Shown: positions 18,882 through 52,805 of the stretch, piece after piece
How positions within the stretch are numbered: the stretch's first letter is position 1
Layout: the number at the start of each line of letters is the position of its first letter
Origin: an uncultured Alphaproteobacteria bacterium
GTDB lineage: Bacteria; Pseudomonadota; Alphaproteobacteria; HIMB59; GCA-002718135
DNA length: 64,000 nt
Assembly: GCA_902595855.1 (NCBI GenBank)
Contig: CACJRY010000008.1
Location: 4,966-68,965, forward strand
Direction of reading: 5' to 3'
Notes under the pieces: generated by a model
What the model was told of the DNA's origin: nothing
Database searches by the model: none
What the model saw: only the letters and a program-made list of their open reading frames with translations
Position numbers and translations under genes: made by a program

Positions 18882-18887
18882 ATAGAC

Positions 18888-28158: not shown

Positions 28159-28193
28159 TTCTTCTATATCAAGATTTATTGATAGCTTTGCAA

Positions 28194-28850: not shown

Positions 28851-28888
28851 AATAGATAATTAGTTTTAAAAGTTTGAAAGCTAAACAT

Positions 28889-29770: not shown

Positions 29771-29771
29771 A

Positions 29772-30800
29772 TTATCTTTCTGTTCTAAACTCTCTCCAAG
29801 TTCTAATTAAAACTGGTGTTAATAAAAATGCTACACCTATAATAGTTAACATAGATGTGGCGCCAGCAGATCCAAACAACATTTTATTTTCACTTCTTAA
29901 GTCATTGTAAATCATCCAAGAGAGTGATTGAGCAACTCCCTCTGCAGCAAAACCAATTATAGGTTCAAGCACTCTAAAATTATCCATGAGACAAATTAAT
30001 ATAATAAATGTTGCGACTGGATAAAGATGTGGAATAACTATATGTCTTACCCTTTCATATCTAGTAGCCCCATCTATGATTGCCGCTTCGATCGGATCTT
30101 GAGGTACAGTTTGTAATGCAGCATAAAATACTACAAATGCAAAAGGCGTATTGTGCCATATCCCATATATAATTAATGTAATCCATGTTAATTGACTTGA
30201 TGATTTTAAGGATAAATTTGGATCATCAAACAAATATTGAATTGTTGCTCCTAAGATCCCTTTTGCATCTATCATCCAGAATAAAACGAGTGATCCAATT
30301 AATGGCGTAACAATCATTGGGAGAATAACACCAAAAATAGTTGGCCCTTTCAGACTTTTTGTAATGGTATTAATACTCAAGGCGACAATGAAACCTAAAA
30401 CTACTACTGGGGGTGTTACAGCAAAACAAAATGTAAGCGTAAATAAGAGCGCTTTATAAAAAGGTAGATTCAGCAAAATATCTGTAAACTCAGCCATTGA
30501 AGAAGAATTACTCCAAGCCTCTTTAATTTCATCAAAAGCTAAATGATTTCTATCTCCATATGTTCCTAATCCATTAAATCTTCCAAGAGGTTGTTCCTCT
30601 TGTAGTTTTGAAGTGGCCTCAATATCTACTTTAGTTTCAGTTTTACACCCAAATGGATCACATTTTTCTACTTCCATTAAAATTTGTTCAGGCTCGATAT
30701 GCAGTGATTGAAAAAAGCTTGAGATGATTGGAAGACCTATAAACAATAGCATGGCCAAGCCACTTGGAAAGAAAAACCAAAAAAATGTTCTATGAGGCAT
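29772..30800 (-). CDS. Carbohydrate-type ABC permease (MalF/UgpA-like) with an extended periplasmic loop
   Basis: 342 aa. EAA-loop-like EAAIIDGATRYERVRHIVIP. Confidence 0.85.
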   Translation of the reverse strand: MPHRTFFWFFFPSGLAMLLFIGLPIISSFFQSLHIEPEQILMEVEKCDPFGCKTETKVDIEATSKLQEEQPLGRFNGLGTYGDRNHLAFDEIKEAWSNSSSMAEFTDILLNLPFYKALLFTLTFCFAVTPPVVVLGFIVALSINTITKSLKGPTIFGVILPMIVTPLIGSLVLFWMIDAKGILGATIQYLFDDPNLSLKSSSQLTWITLIIYGIWHNTPFAFVVFYAALQTVPQDPIEAAIIDGATRYERVRHIVIPHLYPVATFIILICLMDNFRVLEPIIGFAAEGVAQSLSWMIYNDLRSENKMLFGSAGATSMLTIIGVAFLLTPVLIRTWREFRTER

Positions 30801-30812
30801 TTAAATCTTATT

Positions 30813-30846
30813 AAAAAAAAAGTGGAACATAATTATGTTCCACTTT
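30813..30846 (-). terminator. Rho-independent terminator/attenuator after the sugar-type SBP gene
   Basis: aaagtggaacat (30819-30830) pairs with atgttccacttt (30835-30846) around a 4-nt loop. A U-run follows on the minus transcript (plus-strand A-run 30813-30818). Confidence 0.75.
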
Positions 30847-30866
30847 ATCATATTTAATTATAAGGT

Positions 30867-32102
30867 TTATAGAAAACCTTGCTCAGTAGCTTTTGCTACA
30901 TAAGCAGCTTCTACATCAGCTAATGCTTTTTCTGCAGACTCATTACCTTGAAGGAATTCAACAAGTTCTGTACTTAAAGCACCATGTAATAAAGCCATGT
31001 ATGGTAAGCTTGGATAAGGTGTTGCACCTCTATTAGCAGCGTCAACAACTGGTCCAGCAGTATCTCCTGGAGTATAGCCATCAATTAACCAAATTGTTGC
31101 ATTTGGATTAGCGTTTGCCATCTCTGTTGAAGTTGCTGCACCTAGAAGAGCTCTAAATGATGCTTCTGCATTCGCATCAGAAGTATTTGTTGCGATACCA
31201 AATCCATCCCACCAAAGAGTAGTAGCAGGTTTACTTCCACCACCAACTGTTGGAGAATTAGCGAGTCTAGTATCTGCTTTAATCATTTGATCGCCTTCAT
31301 CATCTAATAATGATGCTGCACCAGAGTTCCAGACGTGCATTAATGCCACATTACCTGACTCCCATTCTTCTTTAACTGCATTTGTATCTTGAGTTAAAAA
31401 GTCTGGGTTACTAACTTCTGTTAATCTTTTAAGCATATTAAGAGCAGCTACACCTTTGTCATTATTGACACTTACTTCTGCAGTTCCTGCTTTGAAAAAA
31501 TCACCTCCATGACCCAGATACATATTTACAAACTCTTGACCAAGGTTCCAACCAGATTTGAAAGCTCCAGCATATGGGTTAGCCATTTTGCCAGAAGCCT
31601 TAATTTTTTCTGCAGCTGCAATTACTTCTTCATAAGTTGAAGGAACAGCGATACCTAAATCATTAAGAATGCTTTCTCTATACCAAAGATGCTGTGCATT
31701 AGCCATAAAAGCTATTGCATATATCTTGCCATCAATCACAATTTTTTGATTGTCTTGTAATGCACTTCCATATTTAGCAACTAAATCATCAAGTGGACGA
31801 ATTAAGTTATCATTCATTAAAGTTGTAATTGAACCATTTGTAACAAGTTTTGCAGAGAACTCAGCTGGGTTAGCTGAAAGTGCTGCAACTTGAAGTTTAT
31901 TATGATCAACAGAATGTGTTACAGAAAAATCTGCTCCATCTCCTGCGCAACTTTTTACTTCATCCATGAAAATTCTGTATGTTGTAAATTCGTTAGCTAA
32001 AATCTTTATTGTTCCATCTGTTACTCCACAAGGTGAGTGACCATCAGCGTATGCACCTGTGCTTACAAAAGAGAATAATAAAGCTATTAATAGTTTTTTC
32101 AT
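30867..32102 (-). CDS. Family-1 (carbohydrate-type) extracellular solute-binding protein
   Basis: 411 aa with a signal peptide (MKKLLIALLFSFVSTGAYA). First gene of the operon. Confidence 0.85.
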   Translation of the reverse strand: MKKLLIALLFSFVSTGAYADGHSPCGVTDGTIKILANEFTTYRIFMDEVKSCAGDGADFSVTHSVDHNKLQVAALSANPAEFSAKLVTNGSITTLMNDNLIRPLDDLVAKYGSALQDNQKIVIDGKIYAIAFMANAQHLWYRESILNDLGIAVPSTYEEVIAAAEKIKASGKMANPYAGAFKSGWNLGQEFVNMYLGHGGDFFKAGTAEVSVNNDKGVAALNMLKRLTEVSNPDFLTQDTNAVKEEWESGNVALMHVWNSGAASLLDDEGDQMIKADTRLANSPTVGGGSKPATTLWWDGFGIATNTSDANAEASFRALLGAATSTEMANANPNATIWLIDGYTPGDTAGPVVDAANRGATPYPSLPYMALLHGALSTELVEFLQGNESAEKALADVEAAYVAKATEQGFL

Positions 32103-32125
32103 ATATTTCCCCTTATTAATTAAAG

Positions 32126-32138
32126 TGTGAAATTCACA
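32126..32138. promoter_or_regulatory. 13-bp perfect palindrome TGTGAAATTCACA, candidate operator
   Basis: Read directly. It lies 24-36 nt upstream of the SBP ATG (32102) in the spacer shared with the divergent LacI gene. A second dyad, TGAATtagtATTCA, lies at 32188-32201. Confidence 0.35.
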
Positions 32139-32234
32139 TTTATGTATAAATGCTTTATATTAGCTTTATAAAAATATTGCAATAATATGAATTAGTATTC
32201 AATACTTTGCATAATTTAAACAGGGGATAAAACC

Positions 32235-33239
32235 ATGAATTTTAGTAAAACTGCGACATCACAAGACGTAGCAAAACTAGCTGGAGTATCTCAATCTGCT
32301 GTTTCTCGCTGTTTTACCAAAGGAGCAAGTATTTCAAGTAGGACAAAATTAAGAGTATTAGAAGCTGCAAAGAAATTAAAATATAAAGCTCCTAATATTG
32401 CTAATGGTATAGTAACAAATGAAGATAGTGGCTTAGTGGCCGTTATCCTTCCATATGTAACCAGCAGATATTATCCCGAGGTGCTAGTTGAATTACATGA
32501 AGCTTTAAGATTAGGTGGTTTTAGAATTCTTTTAATTACCACAGATGATGGTGAAGAGTTAGATGAAAAACTTATACAACCATATTTAAAAGAAAAATTG
32601 ATCGCAATTGTATCAGCAACTAAACCAACTGATAATTTTATAGAAAGTTGCAATGCAAAAAGAATTCAATTCATTGCCTATAATAGATCATGGAATATAC
32701 CAACTTTAAGTTCAGTTGCATGTGATCACAAAAATGGTGGTCAAATGGTAGCTGAATATTTTATAAAAAATAAACATCAAACAATTGGATTAATTGAGGG
32801 TCCTAAGGGATCATTTGTAAGCGATGAAAGATCAAAAGGTTTTAAACAATACTTAAAAAGTTTTAAAAAAATAAAACTATTTTTTGAAAAAGGTTTTTTT
32901 ACTTATGATGGAGGCTATCAAGCTACAGAAAAAATTTTGAAAAACAAAAACATCACAGCTATTTTTTGTGCTGATGATACAATGGCTTTTGGAAGTATGG
33001 ATTATATTAAAGAAAATACAAATTTAAAAATACCGAAAGAAATTGAGTTAATAGGCTTTGATGACATTTCCATGTCAAATTGGAAATCTTACGATCTTAC
33101 AACTGTTAGACAGCCAATTAGACAAATGTCCAAATTAGTAACTCAGTTAATTGATGAATACATAAAAGACCCTGATTATGAAGCGATTAACCATATTGTT
33201 CAGGGTAGATTAATTAAAAGAAAAACAACAAATAATTAA
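32235..33239 (+). CDS. LacI/GalR-family transcriptional regulator
   Basis: N-terminal HTH ATSQDVAKLAGVSQSAVSRCF followed by a periplasmic-binding-protein-like effector domain. Confidence 0.9.
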   Translation: MNFSKTATSQDVAKLAGVSQSAVSRCFTKGASISSRTKLRVLEAAKKLKYKAPNIANGIVTNEDSGLVAVILPYVTSRYYPEVLVELHEALRLGGFRILLITTDDGEELDEKLIQPYLKEKLIAIVSATKPTDNFIESCNAKRIQFIAYNRSWNIPTLSSVACDHKNGGQMVAEYFIKNKHQTIGLIEGPKGSFVSDERSKGFKQYLKSFKKIKLFFEKGFFTYDGGYQATEKILKNKNITAIFCADDTMAFGSMDYIKENTNLKIPKEIELIGFDDISMSNWKSYDLTTVRQPIRQMSKLVTQLIDEYIKDPDYEAINHIVQGRLIKRKTTNN

Positions 33240-33257
33240 TTAAATTAGGATTAATAT

Positions 33258-33677
33258 TTATTTAAATTTTAAACCCATTTGTTCAAACACGCCGTGGTTA
33301 TCAACCATTACGTAATTATCTAAAAACTTTCCCTCTTTAATAGTCCAAAAATCTGAAAATTGCATTTTAATTGCTTTTCCAGTAGGCTCTACTCCAAGGT
33401 ATTTACCGCTATGTGTACCTGTTAAAAATCCTGTTGCACTTATCCACTCACCTTCAGCAACGACAATATCATTTTTTACATGATAATCTGGAAATGCTTC
33501 ATAAAAAGGTTTTAGAACTTTATATTTAAAATTTTCTATACCATGGATATCACCAAAACCTGGAGGGCCATGCCAAACCATATTATCATGCCAATATTTA
33601 TGTTGGGCTTCTAGATCTTGATCATTGAGTGCATCATACATATCAGCTAATAATTTTTTATTCTCATCAACAGTCAT
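33258..33677 (-). CDS. Single-domain SnoaL-like (NTF2-fold, ester-cyclase type) protein
   Basis: 139 aa. NKKLLADMYDALN..D, MVWHGPPGFGDIHGIENF, FPDY, and GTHSGKYLGVEPTGKAIKMQFSDFWTIKEGKFLDNYVMVD. This matches my recollection of the COG5485/SnoaL pattern. Confidence 0.75.
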   Translation of the reverse strand: MTVDENKKLLADMYDALNDQDLEAQHKYWHDNMVWHGPPGFGDIHGIENFKYKVLKPFYEAFPDYHVKNDIVVAEGEWISATGFLTGTHSGKYLGVEPTGKAIKMQFSDFWTIKEGKFLDNYVMVDNHGVFEQMGLKFK

Positions 33678-34813
33678 TTTTTATCTCCTAAAATTTGCAT
33701 TAGAATTGCAAGCTCATTAAAACCAGTCCACTCTCTAATAATTTTATTATTTTTAATTTCCCATTGAGTAATGCCCCAAAGATAAACTTCTCTATTAGTT
33801 GGTTGGCCATATGAACCATTTCCTTTATGAGTTCCTATTCCACCCCAACGCACCGATACTAAATAACCATCTTTACTATTTCCCATCCAGTATAAATCTT
33901 CAATACTCAGTGCAAGATCAGGAAATGAAGCTAACATTGATATTATAAATTTTCTTAATTGCAAAACTCCTTTAAATTTACGACCAGTTGAGCCTTCAAA
34001 TTCTACATTACTAGAGTATGCTTTATTTATTGCAGAAAAGTTTCGTCTATTCCAAATAGTATCATAAACTGCATGAACAAACTCTCTTACATTTTTAATT
34101 TTATCAGGAATATCAAAACTAATTGGTTTTAATTTAGTAATATTTCTTTTTGGCTTAGAGTTTTTAAAATGAGGGGCATATGGTCCTGCAATTCCTTCAT
34201 CAACAAGTTGTTTAGCAACTTGATTTAAATCTAATCCAAGCTGTTTAATTAAACCTGCTGTATCGTAGACAACATTTTCGTAATAAATTTCATTATTTTT
34301 TGCTACACAATTTGCAATACAAAATAATCTTACTTTTTTTCCAGTTGGTTTAGAAAATTTACTAAATCCCGTATTTGTTCCGGTAATAATTGTTCTATGC
34401 GAAGTATGAAAACTTATATTTTGATCTCCTGCCCAAATAACTTCATCAGCGAATAATCTAATATCTGGGAAGGCATTATTCGTGTGTACAGTATCAGCTA
34501 CTATTTTTTCAGATCCCGATTGCAAACCAAATTCATCCCAAACTCTACAATCTTTACTATATGTATCATAGATATATCCAATATTTTTTTCTTCCCATAT
34601 TTGATAGGTAATCCTCACAATATAATCTATGATATTTTTATATTGGGCTTCAAATCCCATCATTGATTGATGTTTAAGTTTTTTTGGTTTTGGATTTAAT
34701 GATTTAGCTGTTCCTCCCCCTCCATATGCTTTTAATGAAATATCATAACTCTTAGGCATATGATGATCTTTAAGGCCTTCTGGTCTTTTGTCTGTAATTT
34801 TATTAAATTTCAT
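33674..34813 (-). CDS. Tandem NTF2/SnoaL-like protein, type 1, copy A
   Basis: 379 aa. It aligns by eye with 37058..38050 (DYIVRITYQIWEE vs DYILKITYQIWEN; KPTGKKVRLF vs KATGKKLYYR; C-terminal FPD...G.HKG.G..G). It has a unique ~50-aa N-terminal extension, so an internal start at 34663 is possible. Confidence 0.7.
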   Translation of the reverse strand: MKFNKITDKRPEGLKDHHMPKSYDISLKAYGGGGTAKSLNPKPKKLKHQSMMGFEAQYKNIIDYIVRITYQIWEEKNIGYIYDTYSKDCRVWDEFGLQSGSEKIVADTVHTNNAFPDIRLFADEVIWAGDQNISFHTSHRTIITGTNTGFSKFSKPTGKKVRLFCIANCVAKNNEIYYENVVYDTAGLIKQLGLDLNQVAKQLVDEGIAGPYAPHFKNSKPKRNITKLKPISFDIPDKIKNVREFVHAVYDTIWNRRNFSAINKAYSSNVEFEGSTGRKFKGVLQLRKFIISMLASFPDLALSIEDLYWMGNSKDGYLVSVRWGGIGTHKGNGSYGQPTNREVYLWGITQWEIKNNKIIREWTGFNELAILMQILGDKK

Positions 34814-34858
34814 ATTTTGTATTTGTTATGAGATACATTTAAAAATATTTCAAAGCAA

Positions 34859-34886
34859 TGAAATTTTATTCAAAAAAATGAATATT
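34859..34886. promoter_or_regulatory. Dyad motif TGAAAttttATTCAaaaaaaTGAATATT in the divergent promoter of SnoaL module A
   Basis: Read directly. A near-identical arrangement occurs at 39041-39069. Confidence 0.4.
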
Positions 34887-34920
34887 GTCTTTTTTAGTTT
34901 ATTAATATAATCAAAATGCA

Positions 34921-35925
34921 ATGACTGATCTCCAAGCAGAAAAAAAATTAGTATTAGATTATTTCAATGAAATAGATAGTTGCAACATTGATTCATTATC
35001 TGAAGTTATATCCAGATACGCATCAGAAGATTTTAGTATGAAATGTACCCACCCATTCAACGAACTAATTAGTATAGATCTTGTTGCTAATAATCTTTGG
35101 AAACCAATTAAAGATTCATTTTCACCTATACAACGTCGATTAGATATATTTTATGCTGGGATAAATTCACTAGATAAAAATAAAGGGAAATGGATCTCCA
35201 GTATGGGTCATTTCATGGGTGTTTTCAATAAACCGTTTGTAGGCCTTAAACCAAATAATAAATCAATTTTATTAAGATTTGCAGAATTTTACAAAGTGGA
35301 AAATAACAAAATTACTGAAGGAGCTATTTTTTTAGATATAATGAATTTAATGCAGCAACTAGGTCTTTCTATAATTCCTGAATCTACAGGTCTTGTTTGT
35401 GTAACACCTGGACCAATGAATCATAAAGGTTTGAAATTTGATATTTCTAATGAAAGTGAAAGTCAAAAAACATTAGATTTAATTCATAGAATGCGCGATC
35501 GACTTGTTAAAGGATCCAAAATGCAATCCTACAAAGAAGAATTAGAATTGGATTGGCATAAAGATATGATTTGGTGGGGGCCTGGAGGCATTGGAGCTTC
35601 ATATACTATTGATGGCTATCAAAAAGGTCACACTAAACCATTTCAAGATGGCTTAGAGTTTGTTCGTTTCAATGGACATATACTTAGTAGTTCTGAAGAT
35701 GATCTAGGTGGTTGGTTTGGTTGGCCAAATTTAATTATGAAACCTAAAGGAGAGTATTTGGGCTTAACAAATGCTAGTAATATTGAGTCAGAAATGAGAG
35801 TAGTAGATTTATATCGAAGAGACGGAGATAAATTAGCTGAAAATTGGATCTTTATTGATCATTTACATTTTTTAAAAAAACTAGGTGTGGATCTTTTAGA
35901 AAGAGCAAAATTTTTAAATCAGTAA
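34921..35925 (+). CDS. Tandem NTF2/SnoaL-like protein, type 2, copy A
   Basis: 334 aa. It aligns by eye with 39125..40219 (VGLKPNNKSILLRFAEFYKVENNKI vs LGVKPTNKTIYLRTCEAHQITNNKI; MIWWGPGGIGASYTIDGY vs MMWYGPSGIGTARGLDGF). Confidence 0.7.
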   Translation: MTDLQAEKKLVLDYFNEIDSCNIDSLSEVISRYASEDFSMKCTHPFNELISIDLVANNLWKPIKDSFSPIQRRLDIFYAGINSLDKNKGKWISSMGHFMGVFNKPFVGLKPNNKSILLRFAEFYKVENNKITEGAIFLDIMNLMQQLGLSIIPESTGLVCVTPGPMNHKGLKFDISNESESQKTLDLIHRMRDRLVKGSKMQSYKEELELDWHKDMIWWGPGGIGASYTIDGYQKGHTKPFQDGLEFVRFNGHILSSSEDDLGGWFGWPNLIMKPKGEYLGLTNASNIESEMRVVDLYRRDGDKLAENWIFIDHLHFLKKLGVDLLERAKFLNQ

Positions 35926-37053
35926 TTAGACAACTTTTGAGGCAAGTTTAGTGCCTTCAACTAATGCATGAAGCTTTTCATAACAAATTTTTTCATCAAT
36001 TTTTCCAAAGCCAGCAAATGTACTAAAACCACAATCTGTCCCTGCCATTAATTGATCTTTTGGAATTACTGTAGAAAATTGAATTAATCTATCTGCAACA
36101 ACTTCTGGATGTTCAACAAAATTAGAGGTTGAGTCAATTACACCAGGTACCAGCACTTTATCTTTTGGTAGTTTTATATCTTGAAAAACTTTCCATTCAT
36201 GTGAATGCCTAGGATTAGAGGATTCAATTAGAAAATATTTTATTTTCGATTTCAAAATTATAGGTAATATTTTTTCTAGAGCAATATCGTGTGTGTGAGG
36301 CCCTTCATAATTGCCCCAACATATATGCATTCTAGTTTTTTCAACATCAACATTAGATAATGCTGAGTTTAGGCATTCAATTTGTAGTTCTGCACGTTTA
36401 ATAAATTCATCTTCAGATAAATTTTTAAAATTCATATGTCTTGCTAAAGCAAGATCTGGGCAATCTAACTGAACTTGGATATCTGATTTTGTTATAACCT
36501 CATATTCTTTAGCCATAATATTAGATAATTTTTCCAAATATTCATCTTCGGTACTGTAAAATTTATTCGGCATAAAAACATTTATAACACCAGGTGATGC
36601 TGAGTTCATAAATGCATGTCGGTGATTTAGTTTATCAAGTGAATTTTTAAAATTATTTATATCCTGTAGAAGAGACTTTTCATCTTTTACTTTTAATTCG
36701 TTTGTACAACATGGTCTGGTATAAGTTGGTGTGCCACCACTTTTAGCAATCTTTTCTTTATATTCTGGAAAATCATCAAGATCAGCGGGTGCTCTTCTTT
36801 CGCTTTCACCTGAGAACCCATCAATTCTGTCTTTAATATATGTAGCGTAGCTAATTTTACTCATCTCCCCATCGCTGACAAAATCAATTCCAACATCAAG
36901 TTGTCTCTTAACAACACTTTCCACGTTGTTTTTTAATACTTCATCAAAACTACTTTGACTAAATTTCTCTCCTTTATCTTTTGCAAATAAAAATTCTGAG
37001 AGTTCTTTTGATCTAGGAAGGCTTCCAACATGTGTTGTCAAAATATTAGACAT
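35926..37053 (-). CDS. Cobalamin-independent methionine-synthase-II-like family protein (about 375-aa type)
   Basis: THVGSLPRS, VSDGEMSK, HICWGNYEGPH and GTDCGF (Zn-ligand pattern of the MetE C-terminal fold). Confidence 0.75.
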   Translation of the reverse strand: MSNILTTHVGSLPRSKELSEFLFAKDKGEKFSQSSFDEVLKNNVESVVKRQLDVGIDFVSDGEMSKISYATYIKDRIDGFSGESERRAPADLDDFPEYKEKIAKSGGTPTYTRPCCTNELKVKDEKSLLQDINNFKNSLDKLNHRHAFMNSASPGVINVFMPNKFYSTEDEYLEKLSNIMAKEYEVITKSDIQVQLDCPDLALARHMNFKNLSEDEFIKRAELQIECLNSALSNVDVEKTRMHICWGNYEGPHTHDIALEKILPIILKSKIKYFLIESSNPRHSHEWKVFQDIKLPKDKVLVPGVIDSTSNFVEHPEVVADRLIQFSTVIPKDQLMAGTDCGFSTFAGFGKIDEKICYEKLHALVEGTKLASKVV

Positions 37054-37057
37054 TAAA

Positions 37058-38050
37058 TTAACCTGTTTTTAATAAAATCTGTTTCCAGATCATAGTTTCA
37101 TCATACAGAACCCATTCATTTTTAATACCTCTTTCTCCAAATTCAACATGATTAATACCCATTATATAAATTTTCGAATTAGAGGCTTTCCCAAAAAGAC
37201 CATCACCTTCATGTTTACCTACCATAGACCATCGAACTGAAGCTTTTTTAGGTTCATATTTTTCTTCAGTAAAAGCAATGTGCTCAACTGAGAACAATGC
37301 GTTAGGAAAAGCATTTCTTAATTGTTTCCAAAATTTTATTACCTCATCTCTACCATGGTGAGTTTTTCCTCCTGGCTGGTATTGCTGTATAGCTCTGTCA
37401 TAACTATCATTTATTGTTTTCTCTAAATTAATGTTCATAATAGACATTAAGATATTTGCATATAGTTCTCCAATGTTGCCAGAAGCTAATATGGGAGATT
37501 TATAAATTGATTTAATAGGTGTATTTTCATCAAAGGGTTTACTAGCTTTTTCAGGACCGCCTTCATCTTTAATAAGATTACTAGCAAATTCCTTCGGATC
37601 AATTCCAATTTGTCTCACAATTGCTCCTTGGTCTCTCACAAGCCACTCATCATAAACTTGATTATTCATGCATGCACAATCAGCAATAGTGCGGTAATAG
37701 AGTTTTTTTCCTGTCGCTTTCCCATACATACCATCAACAGAATGAGTAGAGGTTGATAAAATGCGGTGTGATGAAAAATATCCCTCATCATCATTTCCTG
37801 TCCAAATTACATCTTCACCTAAAAGTGTTCTATCAGGAAATAGTTTTTTACTAGCATAGGTATTTTCAATTACTGGGTCTGCACCATAAATTACTCCAGA
37901 TGGAGATCTTGTAGGTGTTGGAAGACTTACGTTTGGAGTATCAGCATAATAATCTCTTATTGCTTCAACATCATTGTTTTCCCAAATTTGATATGTAATC
38001 TTTAAAATATAATCAGGAAAATCTTTGAATTGTGCATCAAATCCTTTCAT
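37058..38050 (-). CDS. Tandem NTF2/SnoaL-like protein, type 1, copy B
   Basis: 330 aa, paralogous to 33674..34813 (see that entry). The second half reads FPNALFSVEHIAF...VRWSMVGKHEGDGLFGKASNSKIYIMGINHVEF..GIKNEWVLYD. Confidence 0.7.
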   Translation of the reverse strand: MKGFDAQFKDFPDYILKITYQIWENNDVEAIRDYYADTPNVSLPTPTRSPSGVIYGADPVIENTYASKKLFPDRTLLGEDVIWTGNDDEGYFSSHRILSTSTHSVDGMYGKATGKKLYYRTIADCACMNNQVYDEWLVRDQGAIVRQIGIDPKEFASNLIKDEGGPEKASKPFDENTPIKSIYKSPILASGNIGELYANILMSIMNINLEKTINDSYDRAIQQYQPGGKTHHGRDEVIKFWKQLRNAFPNALFSVEHIAFTEEKYEPKKASVRWSMVGKHEGDGLFGKASNSKIYIMGINHVEFGERGIKNEWVLYDETMIWKQILLKTG

Positions 38051-38061
38051 ATAATTAATAT

Positions 38062-39033
38062 TTAATTAGTTTGTCGTATTATAAATAAATTACCATCATG
38101 ATCACTTATCTGTCTGATTGAACGAAGTGAATTTTTTGGAACAGAAAATGTATCTTTTTCTTTAATTACAACTTTATCGCCATCACAATCTATTTCCCAT
38201 TCACCAGATAAACAATGATAAACCTCTGATTTATCCAGTTTGTATTCATGTATATGGGCACTTTTTCCATTAAGAAGAGAAAGGCTAAATCCTGTCGTAT
38301 GCGGTATTTTTGGACTAAACAATTTGTCGTGAATTTTAAATTGATCAATATAGTTAATAATTTTATTAGACTGATAGTGATCATCATCAACAAAGTGTTG
38401 ATCTTTATCATTAAATCGAATCACGAATTTTTCTATGTCTTCTGAAGAGTAGTGGTCAAAACTCTCTAATTCATTATCTTTAAGTGGTTGAATAACCTTG
38501 GTCTCATCTGTTATTTTCTGTTTCTCTGTATCAATTAAAGAATTATCATTCATTAATACCATGCCAGATTCTTTTGCATCTTTTAAAAGTTTAGGTGTCC
38601 AAGTAATTACACCTGGATCATTTTCACCTAACACAACAAACATTAAAGCTTCTTCATCACTTACATTTTGAAAACCTCTAAACATGTTTGTGGGAAAAGA
38701 AGCAATGTCACCTTTTTTTAGTATTACTTCTCCTTCTGTGCCATCAACACCCCAATAAAAACGCCAGACACCTGAGTGAATTATAAAAACTTCTGCTGTT
38801 GTGTGACTATGTAATCCAGAGCCATTCATCGGCGCAGCACTTACAGCTCCAATATTAAAGCCATGTTCTTCAGCTATTTTGACATTTTGTTTGGCATCTT
38901 CACTTACACCAGGTCCTATAACTGAATAATTTTTCCTATCTTGATGACCTTTTAGTTTTCCCTCAACAAATGGTATATTGCTAGGAATAAGTTCATCAAA
39001 TTTGGCTAATCTAGATGTAATATTAATTGACAT
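38062..39033 (-). CDS. Bicupin protein
   Basis: 323 aa. The first barrel has the canonical cupin motif 1 GSGLHSHTTAEVFIIHSG. The second barrel (AHIHEYKLDKSEVYHCLSGEWEI) is degenerate. Confidence 0.65.
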   Translation of the reverse strand: MSINITSRLAKFDELIPSNIPFVEGKLKGHQDRKNYSVIGPGVSEDAKQNVKIAEEHGFNIGAVSAAPMNGSGLHSHTTAEVFIIHSGVWRFYWGVDGTEGEVILKKGDIASFPTNMFRGFQNVSDEEALMFVVLGENDPGVITWTPKLLKDAKESGMVLMNDNSLIDTEKQKITDETKVIQPLKDNELESFDHYSSEDIEKFVIRFNDKDQHFVDDDHYQSNKIINYIDQFKIHDKLFSPKIPHTTGFSLSLLNGKSAHIHEYKLDKSEVYHCLSGEWEIDCDGDKVVIKEKDTFSVPKNSLRSIRQISDHDGNLFIIRQTN

Positions 39034-39040
39034 ATTGTAA

Positions 39041-39087
39041 TGATCTTTTATTCATTTTTTTTGAATATTATTCAAAATAATGAATAA
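39041..39087. promoter_or_regulatory. Array of TGAAT/ATTCA half-sites in the divergent promoter of SnoaL module B
   Basis: Read directly: TGATCttttATTCAtttttttTGAATAttATTCAaaataaTGAATAA. The first 29 nt parallel the motif at 34859-34886. Confidence 0.4.
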
Positions 39088-39124
39088 ATCAATTATTATT
39101 TAACAATAGTGTTATTAAATTATT

Positions 39125-40219
39125 ATGGCAAATAAAATACAAAACTTTGATACAGGTGAGAAAGATAACTCAAATATAATTAATTTAGATCTTGATCCGA
39201 AGATAAATATTGAAAACAAAATATATTTTAAAAATTTATTAAAAAAAATTGCCGAGTGCTCTTTAGATGATTTAGAGGAAAATCTTGCAAATTTATATCA
39301 CATAGATGCTGAGTTTAATGGCTTTCATCCAATTAATGAAATTAAGGGGATTGAAGAAATAAAAAATAAATATTTAATACCTCTAAAGAAGGCATTCCCC
39401 GATCTTGAAAGAAGAAATAATCTAGTTATTGGAGGAGCATTTAGAGATAAAGTTTTTGTTTCATTTATTAGTCATTTAACTGGTACTTTCAAAAATGAGT
39501 GGTTGGGTGTAAAGCCGACTAACAAAACAATTTATCTTAGAACATGTGAAGCACATCAAATTACAAACAATAAAATAATAAAATCTTACACATTGATAGA
39601 TACTGTAGACTTTATCAGTCAAGCGGGACATTGGCCTATAAATAAATCTCTTGGAGTAGAAGGGATGTGGAGTAGTCCAATCACAGGTGATGGAGAAAAT
39701 AATCAAAATTTAGATAAAGAACTGTCTCTTCAATCTTTAAATCAAGATTTAACCATGCAAAGAAGTTTAAATATTAAACCTGAGACTGAACCAGGTCTTT
39801 CAAAGGATCAAATAAGAGAAAAATTAATTAATCATCCTCAACAAGATTACTGGCATCCAAAAATGATGTGGTATGGGCCAAGTGGTATAGGCACAGCTAG
39901 AGGTTTAGATGGTTTTGTTGATCAACACCAACTCCCATTTAGACTTACATTCAAGGATAGAGATTATTGGAAAATTGGCCATTATATTGAAATTGGAGAT
40001 GGAAATTATTCTATGACTGGGGGTTGGCATAGTATTGAGTGTGTACATGGTTCCAGTGAATGGCTTGGATATGAAGCAACAAATAAGACAGTAACAATGA
40101 GAGTAATGGATTTTTATTTACATCATGAAGGCTTAATAAGAGAAAATTGGGTCCCAATAGATATAGCGCACATCTTATATCAAATAGGTGTAGATGTTTT
40201 TGAACTAATAAAAAAATAA
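39125..40219 (+). CDS. Tandem NTF2/SnoaL-like protein, type 2, copy B
   Basis: 364 aa, paralogous to 34921..35925. Confidence 0.7.
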   Translation: MANKIQNFDTGEKDNSNIINLDLDPKINIENKIYFKNLLKKIAECSLDDLEENLANLYHIDAEFNGFHPINEIKGIEEIKNKYLIPLKKAFPDLERRNNLVIGGAFRDKVFVSFISHLTGTFKNEWLGVKPTNKTIYLRTCEAHQITNNKIIKSYTLIDTVDFISQAGHWPINKSLGVEGMWSSPITGDGENNQNLDKELSLQSLNQDLTMQRSLNIKPETEPGLSKDQIREKLINHPQQDYWHPKMMWYGPSGIGTARGLDGFVDQHQLPFRLTFKDRDYWKIGHYIEIGDGNYSMTGGWHSIECVHGSSEWLGYEATNKTVTMRVMDFYLHHEGLIRENWVPIDIAHILYQIGVDVFELIKK

Positions 40220-40280
40220 CAGATTTAATAGATATTATCAGATAATTATATATACGTAGAAAATTAATTGAGGGGAAAAA

Positions 40281-41567
40281 ATGACTATTTCATATATCAA
40301 AAAAGCTGACAAAACTGCTTCTTCCGATGAAGTAGAGACAAGACAACGAGTACAAGAAGTTCTTAAAGAAATTGAATCAAAAAGAGATGACGGCATTAGA
40401 GAAATCTCTCGAAAGTTTGATAAGTATGAAGGTGATGTTGTTGTTTCCCAAGAAAAAATTGAAGAAGTTATAAAATCATTAGATCAAAAAGTAAAAGATG
40501 ACGTTCAGTTCTCCTATGATAGAGTTCGCAGTTTTGCAGAGCATCAACTAAAGCATCTTAATAATGATTTTGAAGTTGAATTATCTCCAGGTCTTTTTGC
40601 TGGTCAAAAATTAATTCCGGTTAACAGTGTTGGGTGTTATGTTCCTGGCGGTCGGTATAATAATATCGCTTCAGCTGTTATGAGTATCACGACAGCTAAA
40701 GTTGCTGGTGTTAAAAATGTAATTGCCGCTAGTCCTCCTAAAGATGAAAATGGTGCTAACCCTATAATTATTTACACAGCAAATTTATGTGGTGCTGATG
40801 TTATTATGAACTGTGGTGGAATAGGAGCAATTGGTGCTTTTGCTTATGGATGTTTTGGTAATCCAGAAGTTGATATGATCGTTGGTCCAGGAAACCAGTA
40901 CGTAGCAGAGGCAAAAAGAATTTTATACGGAAAAGTTGGAATTGATTTATTTGCAGGACCAACAGAAATTGGCATTATCGCAGATCATACTGCTGATAAA
41001 GAAATGATCGCTGTTGATCTTGTAGGGCAAGCAGAGCACGGTCCAAATTCTCCAGCGTGGCTTTATACAACTGATAAAGAATTGTGTGATTATGTAATGA
41101 AGAGAGTACCAGAATTAATTGCTGAACTACCCGAAACATCCAGAAATAATGCTGATGCTGCTTGGCGTGATTATGGTGAAGTTGTGTTGTGTAATACTAA
41201 CGAAGAATTATGCCAAGTAAGCGATGAATACGCACCTGAACATTTAGAAGTACAAGCTGAAAACTTGGATTGGTGGTTAGATAAATTAAAAAACTATGGA
41301 TCCTTATTTTTAGGAGAAGAAACTACAGTTGCTTACGGCGATAAATGTTCTGGAACTAATCACATTCTTCCAACCAAAGGAGCTGCAAAATATACTGGTG
41401 GTTTGTTTGTAGGTAAATTTATTAAAACAGTTACCTTTCAGCGCATGACAAAAGAATCGAATAAAGAAGTTGGTGCTGCAGCAGCTAGAATTTCACGATT
41501 AGAAGGAATGGAAGCACATGCACGAACCGGTGATGCCCGTTTAAGAAAGTATGGTTTTCAAAATTAA
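40281..41567 (+). CDS. Histidinol-dehydrogenase-family NAD-dependent dehydrogenase, probably not the biosynthetic HisD (HpsN-like candidate)
   Basis: 428 aa with GPGNQYVAEAKR, FAGPTE, QAEHGP, APEHLEV, GDKCSGTNHILPT and EGMEAHA. There is no his-operon context. GAGGGG lies 5-10 nt upstream of the ATG. Confidence 0.8.
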   Translation: MTISYIKKADKTASSDEVETRQRVQEVLKEIESKRDDGIREISRKFDKYEGDVVVSQEKIEEVIKSLDQKVKDDVQFSYDRVRSFAEHQLKHLNNDFEVELSPGLFAGQKLIPVNSVGCYVPGGRYNNIASAVMSITTAKVAGVKNVIAASPPKDENGANPIIIYTANLCGADVIMNCGGIGAIGAFAYGCFGNPEVDMIVGPGNQYVAEAKRILYGKVGIDLFAGPTEIGIIADHTADKEMIAVDLVGQAEHGPNSPAWLYTTDKELCDYVMKRVPELIAELPETSRNNADAAWRDYGEVVLCNTNEELCQVSDEYAPEHLEVQAENLDWWLDKLKNYGSLFLGEETTVAYGDKCSGTNHILPTKGAAKYTGGLFVGKFIKTVTFQRMTKESNKEVGAAAARISRLEGMEAHARTGDARLRKYGFQN

Positions 41568-43438
41568 ATAATTTTTTTACTTTCTAAAAAATTGATAATT
41601 TGATCAGCTAACTCTTCAGCATTATTTGTTTTTGTATCAAGGACGAGATCTGCATTTTCTGGGATTTCATAAGTAGAATCAATTCCTGTAAAATTCTTTA
41701 ATTCGCCTGATCTTGCTTTTTTGTATAATCCTTTTGGATCTCTCTTTTCACATTCTTCTAATGGAGTACTAACAAATACTTCAAAAAATTCACCCTCCTC
41801 AAGCAAATCTCTTGCCATTTTTCTCTCTGAGCGAAACGGTGAAATAAAGGAGACTAGAGTAATCAATCCAGCATCTAGCATTAATTTTGAAACTTCAGCA
41901 ACACGTCGAATATTTTCAACACGGTCTGTATCGGTAAATCCTAAATCTTTATTTAAGCCATGACGAACATTATCACCATCTAATAAATAAGTTCTTTTAT
42001 TCATGGTATGAAGTTTTTGTTCCAGAATATTAGCAATTGTTGACTTTCCTGATCCTGATAATCCAGTAAACCAAATCACACATGGTTGTTGGACATTTAG
42101 TTTGGAGCGCGTCTCTTTATTAATACTCATTTCATGCCAAGAAATATTAGTGGATCGACGCAATGCATGGTCAATCATGCCAGCACCAATTGTTTTATTA
42201 TTATATGGATCAATGATAACGAAACTACCTAATTGATGATTGTCTTTATAAGGAGCAATACTGTGCATTTTATTTAATGCTATTTTACAATAGGCAATAT
42301 CGTTTAAATTTAATTTTTTGGTTGCTATTTCTTCATAAGAATTAATATTAATACTGTGAACTAGATCAGTAATTTGTCCATTGATAAAACTATTATTAAA
42401 ACGAAAGATGTAATTACGCTCTGGTAACATTGCGTCTTGATCCATCCAAACAAGATGAGCTGCAAACTGATCAACTTTGATAATTTTATTATTATCTTGT
42501 CTAAGAATGATATCGCCTCGAGAAATATCCAATTCATCTTGTAATGTTAATGTTACTGCTTGATTAATAAAAGCTTCATCCAACTCACCATTAGGTCCAT
42601 AAATACTCTTAATAGAAGTTTGAGAATTCAATGAAGAAGTTGTGATTACATCTCCTTTAGATATTTTGCCAGAAGTGATCGTTCCAGCATATCCCCTAAA
42701 ATCTGAGCTTGATCTATTCACCCATTGCACTGGCATACTAAATGCATCGTTCATCCCCTCCTCTTCAATTTGAATGTTTTCTAAAGTTTCAATAAGGGAA
42801 GGCCCTGAATACCATTTAGTATTTTCAAAATTTGAAAAAACATTATCTCCCTTTAAAGCTGATAATGGAATATACTTCGTGGAGATAAAATTAAAATTCT
42901 TTATCAATTCTTTATATTCTGCGATGATTATATTAAAGATATGTTCATCATAATTTACTAAATCCATTTTGTTGATTGCCACAACAACATGCTGAATACC
43001 AAGGAGATTAACAATAAAACTATGCCTTTTTGTTTGCTCCAAAACACCTTTTTGTGCATCAATTAAAATAATAGCAACATCAGAATTAGAGGCACCTGTT
43101 GCCATATTACGTGTATATTGTTCATGTCCTGGTGTATCGGCAACAATAAATTTACATTTTGATGTTTCAAAAAAACGGTATGCAACATCAATTGTAATTC
43201 CTTGTTCGCGCTCCGCTTGTAAGCCATCAATTAATAATGCTAGATCTATATCTTTTCCTTGGGTGCCGTATTTTTCACTTTCAATCTTTGCTTGATCCAT
43301 TTGATCAACAAATACATTTTGAGAATCGTACAACAGTCTACCTAATAAAGTCGACTTGCCATCATCCACGGATCCACATGTTAAAATTTTAACTTGCTTC
43401 TTTTTATTTTGATTTTGAAAAAATTTTTCTAAATCCAT
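41564..43438 (-). CDS. cysNC: Bifunctional sulfate adenylyltransferase subunit 1 / adenylylsulfate kinase
   Basis: 624 aa. GTPase motifs GSVDDGKST, DTPGH and NKMD; C-terminal APS kinase with the P-loop GLSGSGKST. Confidence 0.9.
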   Translation of the reverse strand: MDLEKFFQNQNKKKQVKILTCGSVDDGKSTLLGRLLYDSQNVFVDQMDQAKIESEKYGTQGKDIDLALLIDGLQAEREQGITIDVAYRFFETSKCKFIVADTPGHEQYTRNMATGASNSDVAIILIDAQKGVLEQTKRHSFIVNLLGIQHVVVAINKMDLVNYDEHIFNIIIAEYKELIKNFNFISTKYIPLSALKGDNVFSNFENTKWYSGPSLIETLENIQIEEEGMNDAFSMPVQWVNRSSSDFRGYAGTITSGKISKGDVITTSSLNSQTSIKSIYGPNGELDEAFINQAVTLTLQDELDISRGDIILRQDNNKIIKVDQFAAHLVWMDQDAMLPERNYIFRFNNSFINGQITDLVHSININSYEEIATKKLNLNDIAYCKIALNKMHSIAPYKDNHQLGSFVIIDPYNNKTIGAGMIDHALRRSTNISWHEMSINKETRSKLNVQQPCVIWFTGLSGSGKSTIANILEQKLHTMNKRTYLLDGDNVRHGLNKDLGFTDTDRVENIRRVAEVSKLMLDAGLITLVSFISPFRSERKMARDLLEEGEFFEVFVSTPLEECEKRDPKGLYKKARSGELKNFTGIDSTYEIPENADLVLDTKTNNAEELADQIINFLESKKII

Positions 43439-44337
43439 TAAAAATATCCTTCTTGCTTCTTCTTTTCCATTGATCCAATTTGATCTTTATCTATTGCTCT
43501 TCCTTCTCTTTCAGAATTTTTACTCTCTAATAATTCAATGATAATTTCTTCCACTGTTGTTGCTGTTGACTCAATAGCACCAGTTAAAGGATAGCAACCC
43601 AATGTTCTAAAACGCACCATTCGATTTTCTATTTTTTCATGTTCTTTTACATCGAGCCTTTTGTCATCAACCATTAAAAGTAAATCATCACGTTTAATTA
43701 CGGTGCGTTCTTTTGCAAAGTATAGAGGAACAATATTTATCTTTTCTTGGTAAATGTATTGCCATACATCAATCTCAGTCCAATTTGATAGAGGAAAAAC
43801 TCTTACGTTTTCTCCCTTTGCTATTTTTGTATTATATAAATTCCATAATTCAGGCCGTTGATTTTTTGGATCCCAATGATGTTGCTGATCTCTAAAAGAA
43901 AATACTCTTTCCTTTGCTCTTGATTTTTCTTCATCTCTACGTGCTCCTCCAAAAGCAGCATCAAACTTATATTTATCTAATGCTTGCTTCAGTGCTTGTG
44001 TCTTCATTACATCTGTATGAAGTTTAGAGCCATGGGTTATGGGGCCAATATTATTTTTTACACCTTCTTCATTAATATGAACTAATAAATCTAAGTTGTA
44101 TTCTTTTGCGATCTCATCACGAAAAGTTATCATTTCTCTAAATTTCCAAGTTGTATCAACATGCAATAATTTAAATGGAAGCTTGCTTGGTGCAAAAGCT
44201 TTTAATGCTAGGTGGAGCATGACCGCAGAGTCTTTTCCTATTGAATAAAGCATAACAGGATTTTCAAACTCTGATGCTACTTCTCTAATAATGTGTATGC
44301 TTTCAGTTTCTAATTTTTCTAAATGGGTTAAGTTCAT
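43438..44337 (-). CDS. cysD: Sulfate adenylyltransferase subunit 2
   Basis: 299 aa. [18 protein letters not shown] and the C-terminal GYF are typical of CysD. Confidence 0.95.
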
Positions 44338-44340
44338 AAT

Positions 44341-46383: not shown

Positions 46384-46393
46384 AATATAACTA

Positions 46394-48511: not shown

Positions 48512-48889
48512 ATGGACGAAGAATTATTTAAAAAAGGGCTAGAAAAAAGAAAAGCAACTTTGGGTAAAGAATATGTCGAGAAAAATCTAGAAAAAGCTGA
48601 TGACTTTACTCTTCCTTTTCAAAAAGCAATGACGGAATGGTGTTGGGGATTTGGTTGGGGTGATGAAGTAATTGATATGAAAACAAGATCAATGATGAAC
48701 CTTGCTATGATTGGTGCTTTAGGAAAAATGCATGAGTGGGAAATACACTGCAGAGGTGCAATAACAAACGGTGTCCAAAAAGATGAAATTCGTGCAATTA
48801 TTCACGTTATTGGTATTTATTGCGGAGTTCCCCAGGCATTAGAGTGTTTTCGAGTGGCAAAAAAAGTATTGGAAGAAAAAAATCTTTAA
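48512..48889 (+). CDS. Carboxymuconolactone decarboxylase (PcaC/CMD) family protein
   Basis: The pattern LF.KGLEKRKATLGKEYV...FQKAMTEWCWGFGWGD..IDMKTRSMMNLAMIGALG...E...H is typical of gamma-CMD. I chose ATG 48512 (preceded by GAGAGG) over TTG 48500. Confidence 0.8.
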   Translation: MDEELFKKGLEKRKATLGKEYVEKNLEKADDFTLPFQKAMTEWCWGFGWGDEVIDMKTRSMMNLAMIGALGKMHEWEIHCRGAITNGVQKDEIRAIIHVIGIYCGVPQALECFRVAKKVLEEKNL

Positions 48890-52747: not shown

Positions 52748-52767
52748 TATTGTGTTCTACAGGAATT

Positions 52768-52793: not shown

Positions 52794-52805
52794 ATATATT
52801 TTAAA

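Follow-up and report, generated by a model that had tools for sequence, protein, structure and literature searches.

A LacI-linked gene cluster of SAR11-type genomes combining a sugar-type importer, SnoaL/NTF2-fold proteins and an atypical HpsN-like dehydrogenase

Gene content of the cluster

The window analyzed here is a stretch of 64,000 nucleotides from contig CACJRY010000008.1 (assembly GCA_902595855.1), with a G+C content of about 0.30, from the genome of a SAR11-type (Pelagibacterales) bacterium. At positions 27391-41567 of this window lies a gene cluster for a LacI-family repressor, a CUT1-type ABC importer, two accessory enzymes, five SnoaL/NTF2 proteins, a bicupin, a MetE-like protein and a HisD-family dehydrogenase similar to HpsN, the dehydrogenase of 2,3-dihydroxypropane-1-sulfonate (DHPS). 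The cluster, followed here in window numbering (Table 1), is a real, widespread and hitherto uncharacterized locus. Its interpretation as a LacI-controlled regulon for a carbohydrate-like compound, with two separable enzyme modules, is well supported. The architecture of repressor, ABC importer and catabolic genes is ordinary; the enzyme content is not.

Table 1. Features of the cluster and other genes of the 64-kb window
Feature	Position	Strand	Support or remark
SDR oxidoreductase, 255 aa	27391..28158	-	Pfam adh_short_C2, 204.7 bits
HAD-IA hydrolase, 218 aa	28194..28850	-	Pfam HAD_2; beta-phosphoglucomutase/hexitol-phosphatase-like
Two ABC permeases, 293 and 342 aa	28889..30800	-	Pfam BPD_transp_1 in both
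Hairpin, 12-bp perfect stem and T-run	30819..30846	-	Terminator-like; gap between binding-protein gene and first permease gene
Periplasmic solute-binding protein, CUT1 sugar type, 411 aa	30867..32102	-	Pfam SBP_bac_1
Operator-like inverted repeat, one mismatch, TATTCAATACTTTGCATA	32196..32213		Binding-protein/LacI spacer
LacI-family repressor, 334 aa	32235..33239	+	Pfam LacI helix-turn-helix and Peripla_BP_1/3/4
S1, single-domain SnoaL/NTF2 protein, 139 aa	33258..33677	-	Pfam SnoaL, 87 bits
T1a, two-domain SnoaL/NTF2 fusion, 379 aa	33674..34813	-	Pfam, BLASTP, model
Operator-like inverted repeat TATTCA-N6-TGAATA	34867..34884		T1a/T2a divergent spacer
T2a, two-domain SnoaL/NTF2 fusion, 334 aa	34921..35925	+	Pfam, BLASTP
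MetE-like single barrel, 375 aa	35926..37053	-	Pfam Meth_synt_2, 51.6 bits
T1b, two-domain SnoaL/NTF2 fusion, 330 aa	37058..38050	-	Pfam, BLASTP
Bicupin, 323 aa	38062..39033	-	Two Cupin_2 stretches
Two tandem operator-like inverted repeats	39049-39067 and 39069-39086		Bicupin/T2b divergent spacer
T2b, two-domain SnoaL/NTF2 fusion, 364 aa	39125..40219	+	Pfam, BLASTP
HpsN-clade HisD-family dehydrogenase, 428 aa	40281..41567	+	Pfam Histidinol_dh, 450 bits; motif G-R-Y-N-N
Omega-aminotransferase (taurine:pyruvate-type candidate) and alanine dehydrogenase	22958-25425
Pta	25546-26457
CysNC (ATP sulfurylase large subunit-APS kinase fusion), CysD, CysQ	41564-45135		Adjoins the cluster
Zn-ADH-type MDR dehydrogenase	48820-49881		HpsP-like candidate
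TRAP transporter (DctP/Q/M)	50805-53942
GMC oxidoreductase	54155-55756		Isethionate-dehydrogenase-like candidate
Xsc	55760-57535		1022 bits

All eight open reading frames (ORFs) that the initial annotation had placed at positions 33258-41567 were reproduced exactly in the ORF list, with the same coordinates, strands and lengths. Five of them encode the SnoaL/NTF2 proteins, herein referred to as S1, T1a, T2a, T1b, and T2b. The Pfam profile SnoaL (PF07366, gathering score 28.4 bits) matches all five with 51-89 bits, in one stretch of S1 and in two stretches of each fusion, in agreement with the nine domains counted before. The proposed division of the fusions into two paralogous types was also reproduced by BLASTP: T1a and T1b share 31% identity over 332 aa (E 1e-52), and T2a and T2b share 29% over 330 aa (E 9e-39). 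Every sequence block quoted for type 1 and type 2 is present. The gene for S1 overlaps that for T1a by 4 nt, and its product is 62% identical to S1 of Rhodobacterales. The nearest PDB sequence to S1 is 8ysb, annotated as a "predicted ester cyclase", on which nothing relevant was found in the literature.

The AlphaFold2 model of T1a, the one protein of the five to be modeled, has a pLDDT of 86.8 and a pTM of 0.88 and consists of two alpha+beta cone domains (helix-helix-sheet). Its top 50 fold matches in the PDB are NTF2-fold proteins, most of them SnoaL-like; the best are the SnoaL-like cyclases 3kkg, IdmH, ChaU, and AclR, with target-normalised TM-scores of 0.7-0.8. The predicted fold is thus upheld by the model and the fold search for T1a.

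Among both sequence and fold matches, the best for the NTF2 domains are polyketide cyclases and hydroxylases, as would be expected if the cluster were a small biosynthetic one, with SnoaL-type cyclases forming a polyketide or another secondary metabolite. With SnoaL/AknH polyketide cyclases and the COG5485 "predicted ester cyclase" group, the window proteins do share the SnoaL profile and the alpha+beta cone. They differ from these cyclases in having two cones per chain and two co-occurring types, in the lack of a polyketide context, and in being tied to an importer in a streamlined heterotroph. No polyketide synthase, nonribosomal peptide synthetase, acyl-carrier or tailoring genes were found either in the cluster or in 94 related loci, the cluster is bound to a binding-protein-dependent importer and a LacI repressor, and polar residues (His, Asp, Arg, Asn) occupy the conserved positions noted in the pocket region. 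A biosynthetic role is therefore extremely improbable, and this reading was rejected for its missing polyketide synthase context.

In some relatives, an extra T2b-like double-SnoaL gene, 31-33% identical, is located just outside the cluster, between the SDR and Pta genes (L016, L035-L038, L040, L068, and L071; L numbers designate related loci). The NTF2 expansion is thus even larger in some lineages.

The binding protein of the importer has only carbohydrate binders among its PDB matches, all of them weak (E 3e-10 or worse): trehalose/maltose, chitin oligosaccharide and xylo-oligosaccharide binders as well as SmoF, the binder of sulfoquinovosyl-glycerol. A second binding protein searched in the same way also resembled carbohydrate binders only. 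The repressor is RbsR-like in NCBIfam, with a score below the cut-off. The SDR oxidoreductase, encoded by the final gene of the transporter operon, narrowly passes the NCBIfam cut-off for the glucose 1-dehydrogenase subfamily (216.7 vs. 215). Import of a sugar-type compound is suggested by these three observations together with the SBP_bac_1 and permease families themselves. Matches of the HAD hydrolase to the NCBIfam models PGMB-YQAB-SF and HxpB are below the cut-offs. The permease genes stay beside T1a and S1 even in non-SAR11 genomes; the SDR gene keeps its linkage to the cluster in all arrangement types, and the HAD gene does so in the arrangements of the window type and the L048 type. No ATPase subunit gene was found in the window cluster, either in the ORF list or by Pfam; the related proteobacterial locus L086 does encode a MalK-type ATPase. 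The terminator-like hairpin that separates the binding-protein gene from the first permease gene may serve as an attenuator within the operon, providing an excess of binding-protein mRNA.

This layout resembles LacI-regulated CUT1 loci such as smo of Agrobacterium, mal, agl, and thu, which combine a repressor, a binding protein, two permeases and catabolic enzymes, have divergent promoters with palindromic operators, and often have the ATPase gene elsewhere. In contrast to those sugar loci, the window cluster contains no glycoside hydrolase, kinase, classical isomerase, or aldolase; in their place are the five NTF2-fold proteins, the bicupin, the MetE-like protein and the HpsN-like dehydrogenase.

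Operator-like repeats, conservation and modularity

The inverted repeat TATTCA-N6-7-TGAATA has three exact copies in the 64 kb, all in the two divergent spacers T1a/T2a and bicupin/T2b, against 0.13 copies expected; this within-window chance estimate is weakened by the fact that the pattern was derived from the same spacers in which it was later counted. The independent support thus comes from the comparison across loci, made with 94 loci comprising 1.83 Mb. All 176 exact copies in these loci are located inside three spacers: 92 in T2b/bicupin, 44 in LacI/binding protein, and 40 in T2a/T1a. At the binding-protein/LacI position, where the window has a copy with one mismatch, the exact form is found in 44 related loci. 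The repeat was found in all 46 SAR11 loci with a LacI gene and in none of the 25 SAR11 loci without one; four further repeat-carrying loci, two with a LacI match and two without, are contigs missing part of the cluster. A shorter palindrome, TGAAT-N1-5-ATTCA, was no more frequent than expected by chance and was dropped in favor of the longer pattern.

Indirectly, these distributions strongly suggest that LacI uses the repeat as its operator and that one predicted regulon unites the importer, module A and module B. Here module A stands for T1a, T2a and S1 (with the importer) and module B for the HisD-type (in the window, HpsN-like) gene, T2b, the bicupin, T1b and the MetE-like gene. LacI would bind the repeat, since the repeat and the LacI gene co-occur across loci. 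Besides LacI itself, four predicted transcription units start from three divergent promoter regions: (a) the binding protein, permeases, HAD and SDR genes; (b) T1a and S1; (c) T2a; and (d) the bicupin, T1b and MetE-like genes, divergent from T2b and the HpsN-like gene. A scan for sigma-70 promoters was uninformative, with fewer sites than in shuffled sequence.

To assess conservation, 262 loci encoding T1a relatives were collected in a scan with one genome per species, and 80 of them were compared, about 70 of which belong to SAR11-type genomes. The closest loci come from single-cell genomes of the tropical ocean labeled as uncultured Alphaproteobacteria or Pelagibacteraceae; an exact-sequence lookup with T1a gave zero matching records. 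Gene order was established by tblastn with the window proteins. In the relatives, the order is HisD-type gene, T2b, bicupin, T1b, MetE-like, T2a, T1a, S1, then in most of them LacI, followed by the binding protein, the two permeases and HAD/SDR. Preservation of this order in about 70 SAR11-type genomes confirms the earlier expectation of a conserved neighborhood rather than a chance juxtaposition. The flanks vary by lineage, with CysNC/CysD/CysQ, AprAB, glutamate dehydrogenase, or homocysteine methyltransferase genes, so that the unit is the conserved block and not its surroundings. This unit spans 27391-41567 and includes LacI, the CUT1-type importer, HAD and SDR. The initial view that no transporter or regulator lies inside the cluster was therefore abandoned: LacI and the ABC genes belong to the unit on account of the shared operator-like repeat and the conserved synteny.

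The two modules are distributed separately. Module A alone was found in Hoeflea, Rhizobiaceae, Rhodobacterales, Geminicoccales, Immundisolibacterales and one gammaproteobacterium, where it comprises T1a, T2a, S1, the binding protein and two permeases, in some cases accompanied by LacI or a MalK-type ATPase. No further enzyme is consistently linked to module A in the neighborhoods of Hoeflea, Rhodobacterales and other Proteobacteria. Module B alone, with LacI and a different importer, was found in other SAR11 contigs. In L089-L094 an alpha/beta hydrolase gene occupies the place of module A, and the binding protein shows only 40% identity; the arrangement in L095-L098 is similar. T1a shares 61% identity with the T1 proteins of Hoeflea and Rhodobacterales vs. 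31% with T1b, and T2a is 45-49% identical to the T2 proteins of these non-SAR11 groups vs. 29% to T2b. The T1b type was met only in SAR11-type loci, and a third T2-like type was found in L091 and L096. The initial annotation had regarded the module as duplicated as a unit, which holds in an ancient sense only: a recent local duplication is ruled out by the paralogue identities of 29-31% and the separate distribution of the modules. The window is therefore better described, judging from these comparisons, as a combination of two old, separable paralogous modules. Module A looks like a substrate-specific front end common to other Proteobacteria, and module B looks like the SAR11 core.

Sequence identity along the cluster is mosaic. 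Relative to L006, the genes from the binding protein to T2b are 93-97% identical, the HisD-type protein 47%, CysNC 67%, and HAD 57%. In the comparison with L005 and L089, identity is 92-99% for the flanks and HpsN, 70% for T2b, and 80% or 40% for the binding protein. Recombination between lineages seems to exchange the cassette.

The L048 clade has an additional RraA-like gene (pyruvate-aldolase family) between T1b and the MetE-like gene (L048 7072-7773). It has no LacI gene, and after its permease genes are located those for a PRK-like kinase, a HAD-IIB phosphatase, an unassigned 403-aa protein and a GH13 enzyme (14988-19612), a set reminiscent of glucosylglycerate or sucrose-type solute metabolism.

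The HpsN-like dehydrogenase, its partner enzymes and the predicted substrate

The previous assignments of the bicupin, the MetE-like protein and the HisD-family dehydrogenase all agree with Pfam, which matched Cupin_2 (twice), Meth_synt_2 (cut-off 21 bits) and Histidinol_dh, respectively. For the dehydrogenase, the family label stands and can be refined: the protein is a member of the HpsN (DHPS-3-dehydrogenase) clade, atypical in having no sulfonate-binding His. It scores 528 bits to CpHpsN (Cupriavidus, 8v35) and 511 bits to RpHpsN (Ruegeria, 8wwe), with about 55-56% identity to both, and 250 bits or less to true histidinol dehydrogenases. Thus, it aligns with HpsN over the full length and scores twice as high as against any histidinol dehydrogenase. 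According to the CpHpsN structure, HpsN (G-R-Y-A/S-H) and HisD (G-S-A-P-L) are separated by a motif that ends, in HpsN, with His126; this residue is a zinc ligand in the resting enzyme and contacts the sulfonate in the complex, where Lys353 provides the second contact (PMC11382572). The window protein keeps the zinc residues Gln248, His251, His411, and Asp352, the catalytic Glu318 and His319, and Lys353; the HpsN blocks GQAEHG, EHLEV, GDK, and EAHART are aligned and conserved in it. The equivalent of His126 is Asn, and the motif reads G-R-Y-N-N instead of G-R-Y-A/S-H. By its sequence the gene is HpsN-like by descent and fails one defining feature, and it may act on something other than free DHPS. 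Members of the HpsN family oxidize DHPS, sulfolactaldehyde, and L-cysteinolate (PMC11382572, PMC12814064).

In most relatives the same slot is occupied by a paralogue, 46-47% identical to the protein of the window, which scores 402 bits to HpsN and 260 bits to HisD. In total, 71 cluster-linked HisD-type genes were found, with the motif GKFPM in 60, GRYNN in 10 and GRNNY in one.

In all arrangements found (five types with different flanks), T2b has the HisD-type gene immediately after it, with an overlap of 4 nt in L001 and a gap of 1-3 nt in L006, L048, L095, and L096, and the genes beyond the HisD-type gene are unrelated from one arrangement to the next. Functional linkage of this gene to the cluster is more likely than mere adjacency. 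Compared with characterized HpsN, the window gene is not located directly beside hpsO/hpsP and a sulfolyase gene, and it closes an operon begun by an NTF2 fusion. Its wider neighborhood contains an SDR gene within the cluster and, at distances of 7 kb and 14 kb downstream, a Zn-ADH-type MDR gene and Xsc, respectively; SuyAB and ComDE genes were not found within the 64-kb window.

The reading in which adjacency is accidental takes HpsN as the SAR11 dehydrogenase for free DHPS, which the TRAP transporter would supply with substrate and after which Xsc or SuyAB would act, with the SnoaL, bicupin and MetE genes as an unrelated variable cassette inserting beside it. In the lineage of the window, HpsN and its right flank are 97-99% identical to those of L005 and L089-L094, and the cassette is 40-74% identical; by this measure the cassette acts as a hypervariable insert beside a conserved backbone. 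The jump in identity places a recombination boundary exactly between T2b and HpsN, which here are separated by a spacer of 61 nt with no operator. Moreover, in some SAR11 genomes (HIMB058) the hpsN homologue is located beside hpsP, suyB, and xsc (supplementary tables, PMC11131964). This reading does not agree with the position of the HisD-type gene directly after T2b in all arrangements, with minimal gaps or overlaps and unrelated genes beyond it, with the use of the same slot by two different HisD-type subfamilies, or with the absence of the canonical sulfonate-binding His; on balance it is improbable.

In the bicupin, H75-x-H77-x3-E81 and R119 of the N-terminal barrel are invariant and the C-terminal barrel is variable. 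Arg119 occupies the position of the motif-2 His, and we infer metal binding for this protein. Its model is mediocre (pLDDT 70), and its fold matches are generic (AerE, oxalate decarboxylase, quercetinase, seed globulins), with no function singled out among them. PDB sequence searches with the bicupin, the MetE-like protein, S1, the binding proteins and the SDR likewise gave generic family matches and no substrate clue.

The MetE-like protein passed none of the NCBIfam methionine-synthase models (best score 106.6 against a cut-off of 406), and differs from full MetE in being a single barrel with neither the two-barrel architecture nor an equivalog-level score. The residues H243, C245, C341, S11, E63, and D197 do not vary among 73 orthologues, and the window sequence also has E277. 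H243, C245, E277, and C341 are located at the presumed zinc-ligand positions of MetE, as assigned by motif, and S11, E63, and D197 presumably correspond to its homocysteine-binding positions. Retention of these putative zinc and homocysteine residues points to activation of an amino-acid thiol. The protein resembles the single-barrel "core" MetE-like proteins of PDB entries 1ypx and 3rpd, with a Meth_synt_2 barrel of ~375 aa and H-x-C...E...C candidate zinc ligands, and matches them at E 1e-8 to 1e-5 only; its gene belongs to a LacI-controlled catabolic operon and not to a methionine regulon. Other single-barrel MetE-like proteins are YxjG/YxjH, folate-independent Mes-type methionine synthases and epoxyalkane:coenzyme M transferase.

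Elsewhere in the window (17352-19940), a second single-barrel MetE-like gene (350 aa) follows, at a distance of 7 nt, a gene for a PehA-like sulfatase/phosphonate-monoester hydrolase (509 aa). Its product is 23% identical to the MetE-like protein of the cluster over the N-terminal 200 residues.

Retention of presumed thiol-binding residues could also mean that the cluster scavenges reduced sulfur from an imported thioether sugar, for example 5-methylthioribose or S-ribosylhomocysteine. The bicupin and NTF2 proteins would then catalyze an isomerization or elimination, and binding or release of homocysteine, or formation of methionine, would fall to the MetE-like protein. Such a pathway would serve the known need of SAR11 for reduced sulfur. 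In its favor are the residues at the four zinc and three homocysteine positions, six of which were tested and found invariant, the HAD hydrolase, which could be enolase-phosphatase-like, the homocysteine S-methyltransferase gene flanking the cluster in L096-L098, and a weak PDB sequence match of the bicupin to acireductone dioxygenase. However, this match is not significant (E 0.079), the MetE ligand positions are presumed ones, no kinase, MtnA/B-type or LuxS-type gene is present, and the four-electron HpsN-like dehydrogenase would be left with no role. Thioether-sugar scavenging is accordingly quite improbable.

The explanation preferred here, to which we give a rough probability of 0.4, is one LacI-repressed regulon at ~27391-41567 for uptake and catabolism of a carbohydrate-like, most likely sulfonated compound. 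A catabolic role for a phytoplankton-derived metabolite, as initially annotated, is upheld as the best reading. In the proposed mechanism, the CUT1-type importer would take up a sugar, polyol or glycoside, and an inducer would free LacI from its operators. The SDR and the metal-binding bicupin would oxidize and/or isomerize the compound. The T1/T2 pairs, each providing four cone domains like a SnoaL tetramer, would then carry out an isomerization, dehydration or retro-aldol cleavage by the acid/base chemistry typical of the NTF2 fold. The HpsN-like enzyme would oxidize a 2-hydroxy (or 2-amino) primary alcohol or aldehyde fragment to an acid, and the MetE-like protein would contribute an alkyl-transfer step with a thiol of the homocysteine type. 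If the compound is sulfonated, the fragment would be a C3-sulfonate (sulfolactaldehyde- or DHPS-like), converted to a sulfolactate-type product and passed on to the Xsc/Pta machinery of the same 64-kb island.

The imported compound is probably sulfonated, since the HisD-type gene is HpsN-like by descent and sulfur genes repeatedly lie next to the cluster. These flank the HisD end in three arrangements, with CysNC/CysD/CysQ, AprAB, or an APS-kinase-like gene (APS, adenosine 5'-phosphosulfate). The alternative is the same regulon for a non-sulfonated sugar, polyol or glycoside, such as a glyceryl glycoside or other compatible solute from cyanobacteria or algae, with the sulfonate genes as mere island neighbors. 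The HisD-type enzyme would then oxidize a terminal CH2OH beside a hydroxyl to a carboxylate, for example a glycerol to a glycerate moiety.

Several observations weigh against the sulfonated reading, and many of them speak for this alternative. The canonical HpsN motif G-R-Y-A/S-H was found in none of the 71 cluster-linked HisD-type genes, so that the sulfonate-binding His is missing from the slot throughout. In the G-K-F-P-M majority (60 of 71), the sulfonate-binding position of HpsN carries a hydrophobic residue, and the motif resembles G-S-A-P-L of HisD at its final two positions. The HpsN homologue of the SAR11 strain HTCC1002, which is 57% identical to RpHpsN and may or may not be of the type in the window, binds DHPS very poorly: it has a Km of 106 mM for R-DHPS and a 2.2-fold preference for DHPS over histidinol, as compared with 1.07 mM and 691-fold for RpHpsN (PMC11131964). 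All other components of the cluster are of sugar type, and the kinase, phosphatase and GH13 genes of the L048 clade are located just after the permeases. No sulfonate genes were found near module A in Hoeflea, Rhodobacterales, and Gammaproteobacteria. No desulfonating or recognized sulfoglycolysis enzyme was found inside the cluster by Pfam or NCBIfam. Apart from the generic SDR, its composition includes no signature enzyme of the sulfoglycolytic Embden-Meyerhof-Parnas, Entner-Doudoroff, transaldolase, transketolase or sulfoquinovose monooxygenase (sulfo-EMP, -ED, -TAL, -TK, and -SMO) pathways. The enzymes sought in vain were sulfoquinovosidase, sulfoquinovose isomerase with kinase and aldolase, and lactonase with dehydratase and 2-keto-3-deoxy-6-sulfogluconate (KDSG) aldolase; transaldolase, transketolase and sulfoquinovose monooxygenase are likewise absent from the cluster profiles.

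Three further points count against the reading as a whole. In L005 and L089, HpsN is 99% identical to that of the window and T2b only about 70%, and in the window lineage HpsN could be a backbone gene that is merely adjacent. From family chemistry only do we infer what each NTF2 protein, the bicupin and the MetE-like protein would do. SAR11 is not mentioned in a stable-isotope-probing study with 13C-sulfoquinovose.

The non-sulfonated alternative is strong because the sulfonate-binding His is missing, no desulfonating enzyme is present, and module A occurs in sulfonate-free contexts. Against it stand the 55-56% identity of the window enzyme to two proven DHPS dehydrogenases with Lys353 kept, the sulfur genes at the HisD end in three different arrangements, and the presence of Xsc, Pta, and the TRAP transporter in the window. 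It is a serious competitor of the sulfonated reading, if a somewhat unlikely one.

The cluster may, tentatively, represent a previously unrecognized SAR11 catabolic pathway built mainly on NTF2-fold enzymes (the paired two-domain T1/T2 proteins, with the bicupin and the MetE-like zinc enzyme) and processing an imported sugar-like organosulfur metabolite. The gene counted as SAR11 "hpsN" would then code for the final step of this pathway and not for a DHPS dehydrogenase acting on its own; this is possible and still doubtful. If true, part of the DHPS flux credited to SAR11 would reflect a different substrate. The gene hpsN is used as a marker in metagenome and metatranscriptome surveys for assigning DHPS turnover to SAR11. 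The missing His, the second paralogue in the slot and the sugar-type LacI regulon suggest that this assignment needs checking.

The genomes of SAR11 bacteria, the dominant bacteria of the surface ocean, contain very few spare genes, and a locus of about 14 kb and 16 genes that persists in ~70 species-level genomes of the group must therefore serve a common substrate. Since the enzyme set has no characterized precedent, an abundant dissolved metabolite and its chemistry are probably still unidentified. The presence of module A in culturable Hoeflea and Rhodobacterales offers a tractable route to the substrate.

Published work and neighboring genes of the window

In targeted literature searches, no characterized pathway of such composition was found, as the initial annotation had supposed, and no publication linking SnoaL/NTF2 proteins with SAR11, sulfonates, or LacI/ABC loci. 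The literature found on sulfoquinovose and DHPS does not mention SnoaL or NTF2, and the recent sulfoquinovose papers give SAR11 no role in degradation. The sole match for SnoaL or "ester cyclase" together with SAR11/Pelagibacter concerned an unrelated Vibrio proteome.

Outside the cluster, the window is an organosulfonate catabolic island (Table 1). The CysNC/CysD/CysQ genes adjoining the cluster constitute a set for formation of 3'-phosphoadenosine 5'-phosphosulfate with no reductase in sight; L001 has AprAB on that side. SAR11 bacteria are regarded as lacking assimilatory sulfate reduction. At 45184-48436, a Rieske oxygenase (GbcA-like, below the cut-off) is encoded beside a 680-aa flavoprotein of the old yellow enzyme (OYE)/FadH type. 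Together they resemble a betaine-type demethylase, and both genes are conserved on the right side of HpsN in L089-L094.

Two ureohydrolases of the arginase/agmatinase family are encoded at 21083-22947 and 6748-7686. One of them is located beside DUF1989 and the aminotransferase/alanine dehydrogenase pair and may hydrolyze guanidino compounds, for example taurocyamine. At 8925-17182, a five-gene ABC importer of the Opp/Dpp type was found, with an unusually long binding protein of 686 aa and with aldose 1-epimerase and EamA exporter genes downstream.

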